Part shown: positions 29,614 to 35,745 of the stretch, piece by piece | Position numbering within the stretch: position 1 is the stretch's first letter | Layout: each line of letters opens with the position of its first letter | Assembly: GCA_963806935.1 (NCBI GenBank) | Contig: CAWEAT010000011.1 | Location: 140,347-204,346 of the forward strand | Length of the DNA: 64,000 bases | Direction: 5' to 3' | Origin: an uncultured Alphaproteobacteria bacterium | GTDB taxonomy: Bacteria > Pseudomonadota > Alphaproteobacteria > Rhizobiales > Beijerinckiaceae | Made by a program: the position numbers and the translations under genes | The notes under the pieces: generated by a model | Told to the model about the DNA's origin: nothing | What the model saw: the letters and a program-made list of their open reading frames with translations, nothing else | Database searches by the model: none

Positions 29614-30119
29614 CGAATGAACGCGGCTCTGGTCGCGAGGTCAGTCAGATCAAAAGCCGTTTGCGCCGTAGAGGCGACGGCACAATGTGCAATTACTTCG
29701 GATGAATGCCGCGCTTCGGTCGAACTGACGCGTTCGATTGTCATTTCGGGAACGGCCGCTCCTGTGCAGGTTTTTGGACGCCGGCGGGGCCGATCTCTGC
29801 GGGCGCTCGGACGGCCGGCGTCCAAAAAGCGCCAGGGCACGAAGTCGCGGTCAGCCGGGGCGGCGGCTGGGAGTCGAGCGCTATGGGGATTTCAGGGTGG
29901 CGGCGCATTCGTTGAAGGCGGGACACCGGGGCGACGCGACCCGAATGCCTGCATGTGGCGGCGGGCGAGGGAGAGGAAGAAGCGTTCCGGCAGGGTCTGA
30001 GGGGTATCGACGGGCGCCTGGCGGATGGATTGCCCGGAATCGGGTCGAGAGGGATCGCCGCCGGCGTGGAGCCAGTGCAAGGGAACGGCAAAGCGGCGGC
30101 GCTGACAGGCGGGTCTGGC

Positions 30120-31331
30120 TCATGACGTGTCGTTTGTGCCCGGCGTCGGCCGCCACCTCGGCTCGCAGCCGCGCGCGAAGACCTCGATGACGATCATGCG
30201 GGCGCCGCAGCGCGGGCATGGGCAGGGCGCCGCGCGCGGCGCGTCCGGCGTGACGTCCGGCTGCGGTTGCGGGTCGGCGGCGGGCGGGTCGGCGCCGAGC
30301 AGCGCGCGGGCGGTCGCGATGTTCTCGGCTCGCTTGGCGTTGGCGAAGAGCCCGTAATGGCGGATGCGGTGGAAGCCCCTGGGCAGCACGTGCAGGAGAA
30401 AGCGCCGGATGAACTCGTGGGGATGAAGCCGCATCGTCTTCCAGCGGTCCGGCCCGGCGATGCGAGTATCCTTCCAGCGGAACGCGACGCCGGCGTCGTC
30501 GGCCGCGACGATGCGGCGGTTCGAGATCGCGACCCGGTGGGTGTAGCGGGAGAGATAGCGCAGCACCTGCTTGGGCCCGGCGAACGGCGCCTTGCAGTAG
30601 ACGACCCACCTGATGCGCCGCAGCGGGGCGATGAAGCGCTTGAACGCGGTCTTGTCGGCGAGCCCGGCGTGCGCGTTGAAGAACGTCAACCGGCCGGCGT
30701 CGTGGGCGTCCGCGAGCATCGCCAGCATCCTGCCGCTGAACAGGCGCGCCAGCAGGTTGACGTGCACGAGGAAGTCGGAGCGGCAGGCGACCCATCGCGA
30801 CCCGTCGGGCGACAACCCTCCGCCGGGCACGATCATGTGCACGTGCGGATGATGGGTGAGGGTCGAGCCCCAGGTGTGCAGCACGGCGGTGACGCCGATC
30901 CTGGCGCCGAGGCGCCTGGGATTGGCGGCGATGGCGAGCGTCGCCTCGGCCGCCGCCTTCATCAGGAGGTCGTAGATCACTCGTTTATTCTGCCAGGCGA
31001 TGTCGCGCAGCTTGCCCGGCAGCGTGTAGACGACGTGAAAGTACGGGACCGGCAGCAGCTCCGCTTCCCGGTCGGCCAGCCATCGGCGCGACGCCGCAGC
31101 CTGACACTTCGGGCAATGCCGATTCCGGCACGAGTTGTAGGCGACGTGCGTGTGGCCGCACGCCGCGTTCTCGCAGCGCGCCACGTGGCCGCCGAGCGCC
31201 GCCGTGCGGCAGCGCTCGATTGCGCTCATCGCCTTGAGCTGGTCGAGGCTCGCGTGACCGCGGTTGGCCTCGCGCCAGGCGGGACCGTGCTCGCGGAAGA
31301 TGTCCGCGAGCTCCAGAACGGGCCGAACCAT
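30120..31331 (-). CDS. IS91-family (Zn-binding + Y2/HUH) transposase
   Basis: YNSCRNRHCPKCQ, HTWG...HPHVH HUH motif, YLSRY Y2 motif, GFHRIRHYG. Confidence 0.9.
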   Translation of the reverse strand: MVRPVLELADIFREHGPAWREANRGHASLDQLKAMSAIERCRTAALGGHVARCENAACGHTHVAYNSCRNRHCPKCQAAASRRWLADREAELLPVPYFHVVYTLPGKLRDIAWQNKRVIYDLLMKAAAEATLAIAANPRRLGARIGVTAVLHTWGSTLTHHPHVHMIVPGGGLSPDGSRWVACRSDFLVHVNLLARLFSGRMLAMLADAHDAGRLTFFNAHAGLADKTAFKRFIAPLRRIRWVVYCKAPFAGPKQVLRYLSRYTHRVAISNRRIVAADDAGVAFRWKDTRIAGPDRWKTMRLHPHEFIRRFLLHVLPRGFHRIRHYGLFANAKRAENIATARALLGADPPAADPQPQPDVTPDAPRAAPCPCPRCGARMIVIEVFARGCEPRWRPTPGTNDTS

Positions 31332-31342
31332 GACCGGCGGCG

Positions 31343-32263
31343 CTATCGCGCCGGCGGCTTCTCGAGGTTCCGCGTGGCCTGCCTGTGGCGCGGCGTGATC
31401 AGGCGCGCGATCGGGCTCTCGACCTTGGCGATGAGGCCCGTCGCCACGCGGGTGTAGCGCGCCGTCGTGTCCAGCTTCTCGTGTCCGAGCAACGCCTGGA
31501 TCAGGCGAATATCCTTGCCGTCCTCGAGCAGGTGGGTCGCGAAGGAATGACGCAGCGAATGAAGGGAGACCGCCTTGCGCAGCCCCGCCGCTTTCGTCGC
31601 GTCCTTGAACAGCCGGCCGAACTGGCGCGTCGTCAGATGACCGGCGCGACCGGGAAAAAGCCAGCGCTGTTGCGGCGTCACGCCGGCGTCACGCCGTTTC
31701 GGCCGCGCCTTCCACCATTGTCGCAGCAGGTCGAGGATCTCGGGCGGAAGCATCACGTTCCGGTCCTTGCGGCCTTTCGACTGCACGACGCGAATGATCA
31801 TCTGGTCGCTGTCGATGTCGCACACCCGCAGCCGCGTCACCTCGCTGGCCCGCAGCCCGCAGCCATACGCGACCGACAGCATCGCCCGCGCCTTGAGGCT
31901 CGTCGCCATGGTCAGGACGCGCCTGATCTCCTCGGGGCTCAGCACCGGCGGCAGCTTCAGCGGCTCCTTCATGTGCCAGATCTCGGCCGCCAGGTCGTGG
32001 CGGCGCAGCGTGACCCGGAACAGGAAGCGCACCCCGGTCACGATCCGGTTGCGGTTGCAGATGCTCGCGCCGCTCTCGACGAGGTGCAGTTGGAAGAGGC
32101 GCACCTCGTCCGCCGTCGCCGTGTCCGGCGAACGCCCGAGCCAGGCGGCGAACCGCTTGCAGCTGGAAAGGTGGCCGCGTTGCGTGTGCGGGTCGAGCTT
32201 GCGCGCGGCCATGTCGTCGATCATACGCTGACGCAGTGGGCTGACAGTGTCGGTCTTGCTCAT
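31343..32263 (-). CDS. Tyrosine recombinase (XerC/D-like, SAM-like N-terminus)
   Basis: YGCGLRASEV, KGRKDR, HSLRHSFATHLLE, LGH, TTARYT. Confidence 0.9.
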   Translation of the reverse strand: MSKTDTVSPLRQRMIDDMAARKLDPHTQRGHLSSCKRFAAWLGRSPDTATADEVRLFQLHLVESGASICNRNRIVTGVRFLFRVTLRRHDLAAEIWHMKEPLKLPPVLSPEEIRRVLTMATSLKARAMLSVAYGCGLRASEVTRLRVCDIDSDQMIIRVVQSKGRKDRNVMLPPEILDLLRQWWKARPKRRDAGVTPQQRWLFPGRAGHLTTRQFGRLFKDATKAAGLRKAVSLHSLRHSFATHLLEDGKDIRLIQALLGHEKLDTTARYTRVATGLIAKVESPIARLITPRHRQATRNLEKPPAR

Positions 32264-32769
32264 GGAGAGCTCCATCCTGAGTGAGGTTCGCAACGCCTCG
32301 ATCTCAGGACGGGGCTCTCCGTAGCGCCATCGCTATTCTATCCGCCTGCTACCCAGCCTCCCGGCTCACGCCACCCCGCGCAGCGGGGCCGGAGCGGAGC
32401 GACTTCGTGCTTTGTGCAGGTTTTTGGACGCCGGCGGGGCCGATCTCTGCGGGCGCTCGGACGGCCGGCGTCCAAAAAGCGCCAGGGCACGAAGTCGCGG
32501 TCAGCCGGGGCGGCGGCTGGGAGTCGAGCGCTATGGGGATTTCAGGGTGGCGGCGCATTCGTTGAAGGCGGGACACCGGGGCGACGCGACCCGAATGCCT
32601 GCATGTGGCGGCGGGCGAGGGAGAGGAAGAAGCGTTCCGGCAGGGTCTGAGGGGTATCGACGGGCGCCTGGCGGATGGATTGCCCGGAATCGGGTCGAGA
32701 GGGATCGCCGCCGGCGTGGAGCCAGTGCAAGGGAACGGCAAAGCGGCGGCGCTGACAGGCGGGTCTGGC

Positions 32770-33981
32770 TCATGACGTGTCGTTTGTGCCCGGCGTCGGC
32801 CGCCACCTCGGCTCGCAGCCGCGCGCGAAGACCTCGATGACGATCATGCGGGCGCCGCAGCGCGGGCATGGGCAGGGCGCCGCGCGCGGCGCGTCCGGCG
32901 TGACGTCCGGCTGCGGTTGCGGGTCGGCGGCGGGCGGGTCGGCGCCGAGCAGCGCGCGGGCGGTCGCGATGTTCTCGGCTCGCTTGGCGTTGGCGAAGAG
33001 CCCGTAATGGCGGATGCGGTGGAAGCCCCTGGGCAGCACGTGCAGGAGAAAGCGCCGGATGAACTCGTGGGGATGAAGCCGCATCGTCTTCCAGCGGTCC
33101 GGCCCGGCGATGCGAGTATCCTTCCAGCGGAACGCGACGCCGGCGTCGTCGGCCGCGACGATGCGGCGGTTCGAGATCGCGACCCGGTGGGTGTAGCGGG
33201 AGAGATAGCGCAGCACCTGCTTGGGCCCGGCGAACGGCGCCTTGCAGTAGACGACCCACCTGATGCGCCGCAGCGGGGCGATGAAGCGCTTGAACGCGGT
33301 CTTGTCGGCGAGCCCGGCGTGCGCGTTGAAGAACGTCAACCGGCCGGCGTCGTGGGCGTCCGCGAGCATCGCCAGCATCCTGCCGCTGAACAGGCGCGCC
33401 AGCAGGTTGACGTGCACGAGGAAGTCGGAGCGGCAGGCGACCCATCGCGACCCGTCGGGCGACAACCCTCCGCCGGGCACGATCATGTGCACGTGCGGAT
33501 GATGGGTGAGGGTCGAGCCCCAGGTGTGCAGCACGGCGGTGACGCCGATCCTGGCGCCGAGGCGCCTGGGATTGGCGGCGATGGCGAGCGTCGCCTCGGC
33601 CGCCGCCTTCATCAGGAGGTCGTAGATCACTCGTTTATTCTGCCAGGCGATGTCGCGCAGCTTGCCCGGCAGCGTGTAGACGACGTGAAAGTACGGGACC
33701 GGCAGCAGCTCCGCTTCCCGGTCGGCCAGCCATCGGCGCGACGCCGCAGCCTGACACTTCGGGCAATGCCGATTCCGGCACGAGTTGTAGGCGACGTGCG
33801 TGTGGCCGCACGCCGCGTTCTCGCAGCGCGCCACGTGGCCGCCGAGCGCCGCCGTGCGGCAGCGCTCGATTGCGCTCATCGCCTTGAGCTGGTCGAGGCT
33901 CGCGTGACCGCGGTTGGCCTCGCGCCAGGCGGGACCGTGCTCGCGGAAGATGTCCGCGAGCTCCAGAACGGGCCGAACCAT
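32770..33981 (-). CDS. IS91-family transposase, copy 2
   Basis: Protein identical to 30120-31331. Confidence 0.9.
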   Translation of the reverse strand: MVRPVLELADIFREHGPAWREANRGHASLDQLKAMSAIERCRTAALGGHVARCENAACGHTHVAYNSCRNRHCPKCQAAASRRWLADREAELLPVPYFHVVYTLPGKLRDIAWQNKRVIYDLLMKAAAEATLAIAANPRRLGARIGVTAVLHTWGSTLTHHPHVHMIVPGGGLSPDGSRWVACRSDFLVHVNLLARLFSGRMLAMLADAHDAGRLTFFNAHAGLADKTAFKRFIAPLRRIRWVVYCKAPFAGPKQVLRYLSRYTHRVAISNRRIVAADDAGVAFRWKDTRIAGPDRWKTMRLHPHEFIRRFLLHVLPRGFHRIRHYGLFANAKRAENIATARALLGADPPAADPQPQPDVTPDAPRAAPCPCPRCGARMIVIEVFARGCEPRWRPTPGTNDTS

Positions 33982-33992
33982 GACCGGCGGCG

Positions 33993-34913
33993 CTATCGCG
34001 CCGGCGGCTTCTCGAGGTTCCGCGTGGCCTGCCTGTGGCGCGGCGTGATCAGGCGCGCGATCGGGCTCTCGACCTTGGCGATGAGGCCCGTCGCCACGCG
34101 GGTGTAGCGCGCCGTCGTGTCCAGCTTCTCGTGTCCGAGCAACGCCTGGATCAGGCGAATATCCTTGCCGTCCTCGAGCAGGTGGGTCGCGAAGGAATGA
34201 CGCAGCGAATGAAGGGAGACCGCCTTGCGCAGCCCCGCCGCTTTCGTCGCGTCCTTGAACAGCCGGCCGAACTGGCGCGTCGTCAGATGACCGGCGCGAC
34301 CGGGAAAAAGCCAGCGCTGTTGCGGCGTCACGCCGGCGTCACGCCGTTTCGGCCGCGCCTTCCACCATTGTCGCAGCAGGTCGAGGATCTCGGGCGGAAG
34401 CATCACGTTCCGGTCCTTGCGGCCTTTCGACTGCACGACGCGAATGATCATCTGGTCGCTGTCGATGTCGCACACCCGCAGCCGCGTCACCTCGCTGGCC
34501 CGCAGCCCGCAGCCATACGCGACCGACAGCATCGCCCGCGCCTTGAGGCTCGTCGCCATGGTCAGGACGCGCCTGATCTCCTCGGGGCTCAGCACCGGCG
34601 GCAGCTTCAGCGGCTCCTTCATGTGCCAGATCTCGGCCGCCAGGTCGTGGCGGCGCAGCGTGACCCGGAACAGGAAGCGCACCCCGGTCACGATCCGGTT
34701 GCGGTTGCAGATGCTCGCGCCGCTCTCGACGAGGTGCAGTTGGAAGAGGCGCACCTCGTCCGCCGTCGCCGTGTCCGGCGAACGCCCGAGCCAGGCGGCG
34801 AACCGCTTGCAGCTGGAAAGGTGGCCGCGTTGCGTGTGCGGGTCGAGCTTGCGCGCGGCCATGTCGTCGATCATACGCTGACGCAGTGGGCTGACAGTGT
34901 CGGTCTTGCTCAT
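33993..34913 (-). CDS. Tyrosine recombinase, copy 2
   Basis: Protein identical to 31343-32263. Confidence 0.9.
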   Translation of the reverse strand: MSKTDTVSPLRQRMIDDMAARKLDPHTQRGHLSSCKRFAAWLGRSPDTATADEVRLFQLHLVESGASICNRNRIVTGVRFLFRVTLRRHDLAAEIWHMKEPLKLPPVLSPEEIRRVLTMATSLKARAMLSVAYGCGLRASEVTRLRVCDIDSDQMIIRVVQSKGRKDRNVMLPPEILDLLRQWWKARPKRRDAGVTPQQRWLFPGRAGHLTTRQFGRLFKDATKAAGLRKAVSLHSLRHSFATHLLEDGKDIRLIQALLGHEKLDTTARYTRVATGLIAKVESPIARLITPRHRQATRNLEKPPAR

Positions 34914-35199
34914 GGAGAGCTCCATCCTGAGTGAGGTTCGCAACGCCTCGATCTCAGGACGGGGCTCTCCGTAGCGCCATCGCTATTCTATCCGCCTGCT
35001 ACCCAGCCTCCCGGCTCACGCCACCCCGCGCAGCGGGGCCGGAGCGGAGCGACTTCGTGCTTTGGCGCAACGGACGCCTTGAGCCGAAGTCCGCTTTGTT
35101 GCGCATCCCTTCCGTTGCAGGGACGGGCTGGATCGTCTGCAAACGGACGGGCTGGATCGTGTGCAAAGTGTGGAACTTTCGCGTTGGACGCTGGGCCAA

Positions 35200-35700
35200 C
35201 GAATGACCGGTTCAGTTCTATCTAATCGACATCCATGACAAAGACGGCAATGCCTTCGATGGCGATAGCACCTACCGCTTGACCGTTCCTGCCAACGTGC
35301 CGGTCCAGCAATATTGGTCAGTGACAGCCTACGATCGCGAGACGCATGCTCTCATCCGCAACATGCCGCGCGCGAGTCGGTCCTCGCAGATTGCCGAGAT
35401 GGCGAAGAACGCTGACGGCTCCGTTGATATCTGTTTTGGACCGAAGGCGCCCCACGGCAAAGAGGCCAATTGGGTGCCGACCGACGCGGCGCGGAGGTTC
35501 GAATTGATGTTCGGGCTTCGCGGCCGACTAAAGCGCTCTCCGACAAAGCGTGGAAGTTGCCGGATGTTGAGAAGATCGCCGATGTCTCACCGACGACAGA
35601 TGCCCTTCCGGACGCCGCAGTACCCGTCACCGCCGATAACTTCCCCCGTGCCGAAAGCGACCTCTACTTCTCCATCATCGCGAAGCGCGGAGGCCTCGAT
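35200..35700 (+). pseudogene. Remnants of DUF1214 (C-terminus) and DUF1254 (N-terminus) genes
   Basis: YRLTVPANVPVQQYWSVTAYD...NADGSVDI.FGP.AP.GKEANWVPT; then VPVTADNFPRAESDLYF. Confidence 0.65.
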
Positions 35701-35745
35701 AGCAATATATCCTTTTCGGAAGATAGCCGACTTGTAGTTGCAAAC

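Follow-up and report, generated by a model that had tools for sequence, protein, structure and literature searches.

We analyzed a 64,000-nucleotide stretch of DNA, referred to here as the window, from an uncultured alphaproteobacterium of the Beijerinckiaceae (GenBank assembly GCA_963806935.1, contig CAWEAT010000011.1, positions 140,347 to 204,346), in which two identical 2,650-bp units lie head to tail. Considered as a whole, this tandem is probably best explained as two copies of one IS91-family insertion sequence (IS) from the subgroup that carries a tyrosine recombinase (TR) in addition to the HUH-Y2 transposase. The arrangement is nothing new as a system. It is a recurring habit of recombinase-carrying IS91 elements, and the element is a new member of the catalogued subgroup.

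A self-identity scan at a period of 2,650 returned a single exact run of 2,652 nt (29763-32414 = 32413-35064), and this run, together with the gene families described below, delimits the two units. Copy 1 spans 29765-32414 and copy 2 spans 32415-35064; they are 100% identical, begin with TGCAGG, end with GTGC-TTTG, and carry their genes on the minus strand. With a slash marking each element boundary, the plus strand reads ...GGCCGCTCC-TG/TGCAGG...GTGCTT-TG/TGCAGG...GTGCTT-TG/GCGCAACGG..., so that the left flank ends in CCGCTCC-TG, the internal joint is GTGCTTTG/TGCAGG, and the right flank starts with GCGCAA. The joint itself, GCGACTTCGTGC-TTTG/TGCAGGTTTTTGG (32399-32427, plus strand), lies within a long hairpin when single-stranded; its predicted fold (-65.9 kcal/mol, z = -5.05) has two stems with an internal bubble at the crossover. 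Both copies terminate in TTTG, in keeping with either a repeated insertion of the one element or a rolling-circle dimer. We found no support for a promoter or terminator created by the junction: the two terminator-like matches at the joint are within chance expectation, and the one promoter-like site is internal to the element (32247-32220, minus strand). An Rfam search of the region from 27 to 38 kb matched no family.

Each unit encodes two co-oriented genes, with the TR gene upstream of the transposase gene (tnpA) and its stop codon 11 nt before the tnpA start; in copy 1, both lie within 29765-32414. The 403-amino-acid transposase (30120-31331 in copy 1 and 32770-33981 in copy 2, minus strand) contains the domains Zn_Tnp_IS91 (PF14319, 5.5e-32) and Y2_Tnp (PF04986, 2.1e-66), and it belongs to the NCBI IS91 equivalog NF033538, which it matches with 425 bits against a cutoff of 125. 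Its HUH motif reads HVH and its paired tyrosines (YxxxY) read YLSRY; we looked for a solved structure of this transposase, and none exists. The longest TR open reading frame (ORF) encodes 316 amino acids (31343-32293 and 33993-34943, minus strand), although the true start is probably one of its downstream ATG codons. It contains Phage_integrase (PF00589) and Phage_int_SAM_4 (PF13495) domains, and its catalytic set R, K, HxxR, H, and Y aligns to XerD (1a0p). The original prediction had described an exact head-to-tail dimer with a tyrosine recombinase and a Y2 transposase in each unit, and the self-match and the Pfam domains bear out both descriptions.

The best NCBIfam matches of the TR are to the integron integrase, XerC, and XerD, and every one falls below its cutoff. 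The TR is thus neither an IntI (TIGR02249, 176 bits against a cutoff of 265) nor a XerC or XerD (168 bits against 335 and 164 bits against 330, respectively), and its match to PRK15417 (109 bits against 435) consists of two stretches that skip the IntI-specific insertion. The TRs of IS91 elements have been placed in an integron-like subgroup of simple tyrosine recombinases that lacks this insertion (10.1101/542381). Most of 25 full-length relatives keep both ORFs open, and pairwise dN/dS values of 0.11 to 0.46 for the TR and 0.17 to 0.33 for the transposase indicate that the TR is maintained by purifying selection as strongly as the transposase. From their sequences, both genes look functional. 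A TR that is intact and under selection suggests that it contributes to the spread of the element, and the candidate steps are capturing the target, integrating a folded single strand, or resolving multimers. Our literature search found no paper with an experiment on the role of the TR in this subgroup.

Target site and element ends

To define the target, we looked for the left-end sequence TGCWGGTTTTYGGACGCCGG in a single genome of each species and obtained 119 loci, most of them from soil Hyphomicrobiales, that contain 125 left tips. The logo of the 118 usable left flanks reads A-n-G-T-C-C-G-C-T-n-n-T-G directly before TGCWGG, with nnTG preceding the left tip in 95 to 97% of flanks (final T, 95%; final G, 97%). 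Right ends read AGCGCAGCGACTTCGTGC-nn-TG, and the logo of 42 to 45 right flanks reads G-C-n-C-(A/T)(A/T)-...-C-G-G-A-C. The resulting target, AnGTCCGCTnnTG/GCnC...CGGAC, is a loose dyad (GTCCG-N14-CGGAC) carrying about 10 bits of information in its left half and about 9 bits in its right half, or about 19 bits in total. The original prediction had proposed collecting other insertions to define a target motif, and these 118 insertions do so. In the window, the left target half is ACGGCCGCTCCTG (29752-29764, plus strand), which ends in the target tetranucleotide CCTG adjoining the element, and the right half, recognized from the right-flank logo, is GCGCAACGGACGCCTT (35065-35080, plus strand).

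The element inserted 3' of ...CCGCTCCTG. The site is an intergenic member of a repeat of about 150 nt that is specific to the genus; the left part of this copy occupies 29680-29764 (plus strand), and the right part extends over about 35065-35160. When the flanks are joined with one TG, they align without gaps across the insertion point with about 20 uninterrupted repeats of this kind from genomes of the same genus, for example, ACGGTCGCTCCTGGCGCAACC. We also trained a position weight matrix (PWM) on other genomes only and scored it over 9.8 million positions of the window's genome, where the joined flanks (attB) reach 17.3 bits and rank among the top 9 positions. The empty site proposed earlier, CCGCTCC-TG-GCGCAA, is therefore supported, as is the proposed absence of a target duplication, since the empty paralogous sites carry one TG. 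We reject the TG as a target duplication of either 2 or 4 nt because empty sites have one TG and because almost every insertion has a different tetranucleotide on the left than on the right. A high-copy repetitive extragenic palindromic sequence of the window's own genome is likewise rejected as the target, since there are only two other partial copies; the repeat is instead a family of the genus. This host repeat (...GGAACGGTCGCTCCTGGCGCAACC.ACGCCTTCAGCCAAAGTCCGCTTTCTCGCGCTTCCCGCCCGTTCA...), which has many copies in same-genus genomes, about three in the window's genome, and no Rfam match, also holds a second target-like motif, AAGTCCGCTTT.

The ends of the element follow the plan described for IS91 and IS801. 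In those elements, the origin end (ori) lies downstream of the transposase gene and must adjoin the target tetranucleotide, the terminus (ter) carries a tetranucleotide of the same kind and has a GC-rich stem-loop nearby, and one-ended events stop at look-alike tetranucleotides (PMC3189936); a general rolling-circle model has been described for the family (PMC5714925). One of their target tetranucleotides, CAAG, is CTTG on the other strand and thus an nnTG; the far end of our element is GTGC-nnTG. Since the element shares this end anatomy, the TG found at all three joints would be the invariant half of a cleavage tetranucleotide, derived from the target at the ori end and from the element at ter. 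By analogy with IS91 and IS801, the TG is probably not a recombinase overlap, and the three joints would be explicable without the recombinase. The TG crossover core of the original prediction thus gives way to the conserved half of an IS91/IS801-type tetranucleotide, and its contrast with classic IS91 does not extend to the end architecture, which matches the published description (PMC3189936).

The ori-type end, downstream of tnpA, occupies 29765-29828 in copy 1 and 32415-32478 in copy 2 (plus strand) and consists of the tip TGCAGG followed by a hairpin (TTTTTGGACGCCGGC / GCCGGCGTCCAAAAA) with a 15-bp stem at 29771-29828. The left subterminal block, GCGCCAGG plus GCACGAAGTCGC (29829-29848 and 32479-32498, plus strand), is an inverted copy of the right end, an ideal tetranucleotide, and the right flank; read backwards, it gives the right end, CTTG/CCTG, and GCGC, an idealized right junction. 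At the opposite end, a GC-rich stem-loop, CCCCGC-GCA-GCGGGG (32374-32388 and 35024-35038, plus strand), lies 26 nt inside the ter-type end, and its CCCGCGCAGCGGG is kept in most of 44 aligned ends. The ter-type end itself is the 12-nt repeat GCGACTTCGTGC plus the terminal tetranucleotide TTTG (32399-32414 and 35049-35064, plus strand). The original prediction had stated that there are no inverted repeats, which is wrong: GCGACTTCGTGC, terminal at the right (32399-32410), and GCACGAAGTCGC, subterminal at the left (29837-29848), form a 12-bp inverted repeat, with the left copy at +73 to +84, shortly after the 15-bp-stem hairpin.

Across 44 distinct elements, we counted one fully compensatory change in each of two helices: a T-A to C-G change in the stem of the left hairpin (13 versus 31 of the 44 sequences) and a C-G to T-A change between the left block and the right-end repeat, which holds in 44/44. 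Both are explicable by a folded single strand or by a protein that reads both copies of the repeat. Derivatives of about 200 to 780 bp, resembling MITEs (miniature inverted-repeat transposable elements), retain only the first 113 to 156 nt or so and the last 51 to 85 nt or so, which sets the minimal cis sequences at no more than 114 nt on the left and about 51 to 85 nt on the right. One 13-Mb bin (G356, the genome of L156; loci L202-L231) contains a burst of a 622-bp MITE from this IS family, with at least 27 full copies at 93 to 100% identity.

The two bases before the terminal TG are variable. Copies that are 98.6 to 99.9% identical often differ there, as in GTTG versus CCTG at 99.66% identity and TTTG versus CTTG at 99.4%. 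In the 27-copy MITE family, the terminal tetranucleotide is mostly inherited (ATTG in 16/27), with variants scattered over the youngest clade. ATTG is present on the right in 16 of these MITEs and in the left flank of one, so an origin of the tetranucleotide from the parent's left flank or from a heteroduplex resolved in both directions is out as a general rule; a metagenome contig with a left flank of TTTG and a joint of GTTG (L200) also counts against the parental flank. We also reject base-paired recognition of the target by an internal GCGCCAAG block acting as a guide: the association between guide and target nn is not significant (Fisher p = 0.07 to 0.19), and a CTTG target occurs in 3 of the 79 elements with a CTTG guide. 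The covariation expected of IS200/IS605-type guide recognition is thus not seen at a significant level, and the terminal tetranucleotide equals the guide in some lineages only, such as the 16 MITEs with ATTG. Nor did we find that the hairpin variant (TTTTT/TTTTC-GGAC) covaries with the target arms. Separately, short tandem micro-duplications of 7 to 13 nt cross the left junctions of four elements (L053, L056, L089, and L103), for example, (ATTGTGCA)x2 and (TATTGTGCAGGTT)x2, and most begin 4 nt upstream of the element tip. The variable nn and the micro-duplications point to error-prone processing around the nick, by either enzyme.

Origin of the tandem pair

By analogy with IS91 and IS801, the transposase would cut one strand 3' of nnTG at both ends of the element and in the target, and the cut strand would be moved by rolling-circle, single-strand transposition. 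After such an insertion, the right end of the element (..TTCGTGCnnTG) and the untouched right target half would together make a strong pseudo-target, and a second copy landing exactly there would yield a spacerless tandem. Scored with the PWM, the right junction (attR, GCGACTTCGTGCTTTG/GCGCAACGG...) reaches 10.9 bits and ranks among the top 264 of 9.8 million positions, while the left junction (attL) scores -4.2 bits and the internal joint scores -10.6 bits. The high score of attR suggests that each insertion re-creates a good landing site on its right, giving rise to exact tandems. We put the chance that the tandem arose by a second insertion at this re-created site at about even. The alternative, insertion or recombination of a circle or of a rolling-circle dimer, is a less probable but still serious candidate.

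The same joint recurs elsewhere. The original prediction held that the internal joint equals that of an excised circle, and it is indeed equal to the joint of a circle or tandem form. It is found in 3 other genome assemblies and 11 metagenome contigs, which places circle- or tandem-type joints in 14 other assemblies and lends indirect support to rolling-circle, single-strand transposition. In other genomes, 3 of the 125 left tips abut a right end (L138, L045, and L132). In L138, a long-read metagenome-assembled genome (MAG), two full copies of a sister element abut one another; they are 97.4% identical (64 mismatches and 5 gaps) and have different terminal tetranucleotides, so they have to be separate insertions and not an assembly loop. 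In L045, a full element abuts a 670-bp MITE, and L132 is another contig that bears a junction. Scanning metagenome contigs for the joint produced the 11 matches (L191-L201), four of which (L193, L198, L199, and L200) have terminal overlaps of 89 to 123 nt; L198 and L199 are each one circularly permuted unit, and L200 consists of a flank, a unit, and the joint.

Several points weigh against the IS91-type explanation as a whole. Among near-identical copies, the terminal nn is about 20-fold more variable than other positions of the element, which simple inheritance of a transposase-cut end does not predict. The PWM does not separate attR from attL as the re-used site, and the assignment of the cuts to the enzymes is taken from classic IS91. 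The target, at about 19 bits and with a dyad-like form, is far more specific than the classic IS91 tetranucleotide and resembles a recombinase-type site. Finally, the two copies are 100% identical, and their number at this locus is known from the assembly alone.

The strongest rival is the model of the original prediction, in which the HUH-Y2 protein only replicates or excises a circle and the TR integrates it site specifically at or next to the TG, with the joint as attP and AnGTCCGCTnnTG/GCnC..CGGAC as attB. The dimer would then have formed when a circle integrated into the attR or attL of a resident copy, or it would be a concatemer that was never resolved. The roughly dyad-symmetric, ~19-bit target (GTCCG-N14-CGGAC) resembles the core site of a recombinase, the nnTG behaves like a spacer that varies, and the TR is under purifying selection. 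The TR is also closest to integron integrases and Xer, enzymes that exchange one strand of folded single strands (10.1101/542381), and the joint folds into a hairpin of two stems with a bubble inside it at the crossover. That attP and attB have just the TG in common would also suit an integron- or Xer-like enzyme working on a folded single strand. There is also a precedent in CTXphi, which joins an HUH replicase to Xer integration and forms tandem arrays through a functional site re-created on the right of the prophage (PMC4439123). Yet the joints follow the classic IS91/IS801 tetranucleotide rule, which needs no recombinase (PMC3189936), and attP and attB share only the TG in the would-be overlap, making a normal two-strand exchange unlikely. 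The right end of the element also lacks a GTCCG arm, the MITEs keep transposase-type ends, the target shows no covariation with the internal guide or with the hairpin variant, and our literature search found no experimental support. We therefore regard TR integration as unlikely, at roughly one-fifth of the weight of all readings.

We give similarly limited credence to a specific form of this division of labor, in which the HUH-Y2 protein would make single-stranded DNA circles whose joint folds like an attC site, and the TR would insert them by single strand exchange into the dyad-symmetric site of about 25 bp, as in CTXphi and integrons. If true, it would account for both the high target specificity and the hypervariable nn beside an invariant TG, and tandem copies would be preferred donors of new circles rather than accidents.

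The identity of the two copies also bears on an assembly artifact, in which the assembler walked twice around a single integrated copy, with free circles or variant strains possibly present. The genome is a MAG (92.9% complete, 4.6% contamination), and several of the short-read metagenome contigs with the joint are circular permutations of one unit. Against this, the assembly (51 contigs, N50 of 153 kb) places eight contig-internal copies of a 2.6- to 3.4-kb repeat that are at least 99.4% identical, which implies a long-read assembly able to span 5.3 kb. The non-identical tandem pair in another long-read MAG (97.4%) cannot be of this kind, and even an artifact would require real joint-bearing molecules. 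We consider this explanation improbable. In-situ duplication of a resident copy by replication slippage or unequal exchange, without transposition, would account for the identical copies with a shared terminal TG microhomology, but 2 nt of homology is a negligible substrate, the segment matches to the base element ends set by more than 100 independent insertions, and identical joints link non-identical elements to each other and an element to a MITE, so we can effectively dismiss it.

Related copies and neighboring sequences

A second lineage of IS91 elements with a TR, 66% identical to the element studied here, is represented by G000:C4:282.6-286.0 kb (L007) and eight further copies (L006 and L008-L012), about nine near-identical copies altogether. 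Four of these lie inside a 3.4-kb unit with inverted repeats (CTAGGCCGTGGTGAC... / ...GTCACCACGACCTAG), and three others share different flanks. The unit looks as though an IS91-type element has fused with a transposon of another kind or is carried inside it. A copy of the element studied here with 88% identity (G000:C4:21849-26101) is interrupted by a member of the second lineage (C4:22526-23757), and a 587-bp left-end fragment is present at C12:165218-165804.

Three other loci show unusual arrangements. A solo palindromic unit of about 70 nt at L144:6283-6378 consists of the hairpin only (TGCAGG, hairpin, and CCTGCA) and has an inverted left half of the target on either side (ATGTCCGCTTTTG ... 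CATTAGCGACCAA); we read it as a possible footprint or, alternatively, a minimal hairpin that is mobile. The sister elements at L138:3429-6075 and L142:1090-3736 are mosaics, with a dS of 0.004 in the transposase gene versus 0.154 in the recombinase gene, indicating recombination between them. At L151:2845-5564, an element apparently has two ori-type ends, a normal left end at one border and an inverted one at the opposite border.

Just right of the insertion in the window, a 24-nt unit, GGACGGGCTGGATCGT(C/G)TGCAAA, occurs twice in tandem (35121-35167). It is followed by a DUF1214 ORF of 152 amino acids (35279-35737), which matches the Pfam profile from position 24 only; the usual N-terminal part is absent, and the ORF may be a truncated gene.

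Comparison with known systems

The element resembles IS91, IS801, and IS1294 in several respects. Its transposase belongs to the same family (NF033538, PF04986, PF14319) with HUH and YxxxY motifs, it makes no target duplication, it has a GC-rich stem-loop near ter, and it has miniature derivatives mobilized in trans. As in those elements, the end downstream of tnpA adjoins the target tetranucleotide and the other end bears one of the same kind. Its differences are a second gene, the TR, a left end with a long hairpin, a repeat of the right end at a subterminal position, and a larger size (2.65 kb versus about 1.5 to 1.8 kb for classic IS91). A classic IS91 member has a single ORF and a bare tetranucleotide target, whereas the element has two ORFs and a target of about 19 bits, which places it in the recombinase-carrying subgroup of the IS91 family rather than with the classic type. 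It has the same two-gene layout as the IS91 elements with an upstream TR ORF, to which it thus belongs.

Pairs annotated as an IS91 family transposase and a tyrosine-type recombinase/integrase number in the hundreds on alpha- and betaproteobacterial plasmids (388 plasmid records matched). A relative named by PGAP as an "IS91-like element ISMno24 family" (H6) is about 66% identical to the element at the nucleotide level, and the closest record found, on a plasmid of Bradyrhizobium sp. CB82, is 80% identical. ISfinder entries such as ISMno23/24, ISAzo26, and ISSod25 belong to the TR-carrying IS91 group. Literature searches on ISMno24, ISAzo26, and similar names returned incidental mentions only, and we came across no published account of this lineage's target motif, ends, MITEs, or tandem pairs.

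IS91 elements that carry a recombinase abound in plant-associated and soil proteobacteria. In itself the locus is ordinary, and the role of the second enzyme is a question for the whole subgroup, one for which the locus and its relatives supply exact ends, a ~19-bit target, minimal cis sequences, abundant MITEs, and a reproducible joint with which to probe the TR. For annotation, an exact tandem pair of IS91-type elements is a family habit and need not mean an assembly error or a new composite system.

More distant systems share parts of this logic. CTXphi and related integrative mobile elements exploiting Xer (IMEX) also combine an HUH rolling-circle protein with Xer-type recombination, and the CTXphi attachment site is a folded single strand (PMC4439123). 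CTXphi is a filamentous phage that uses host XerCD at dif, whereas the element is a 2.65-kb IS with its own TR, so the analogy is one of logic only. The integron system is similar in that the best NCBIfam match of the TR is to the integron-integrase subfamily (176 bits) and in that the joint folds into two stems with an unpaired bubble near the crossover, as attC does. Unlike IntI, the TR falls below the family cutoff of 265 and lacks the IntI-specific insertion, and there is no attI, cassette array, or GTTRRRY core. The tandem itself has a parallel in the (IS)2 dimers of the copy-out-paste-in elements IS30, IS21, IS911, and IS2, in which abutted ends of two copies are natural and recurrent (PMC9333248). 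Those are DDE elements, in which abutted inverted repeats and a short spacer form a hyperactive junction; the units described here are instead direct and spacerless and have HUH and tyrosine chemistry.

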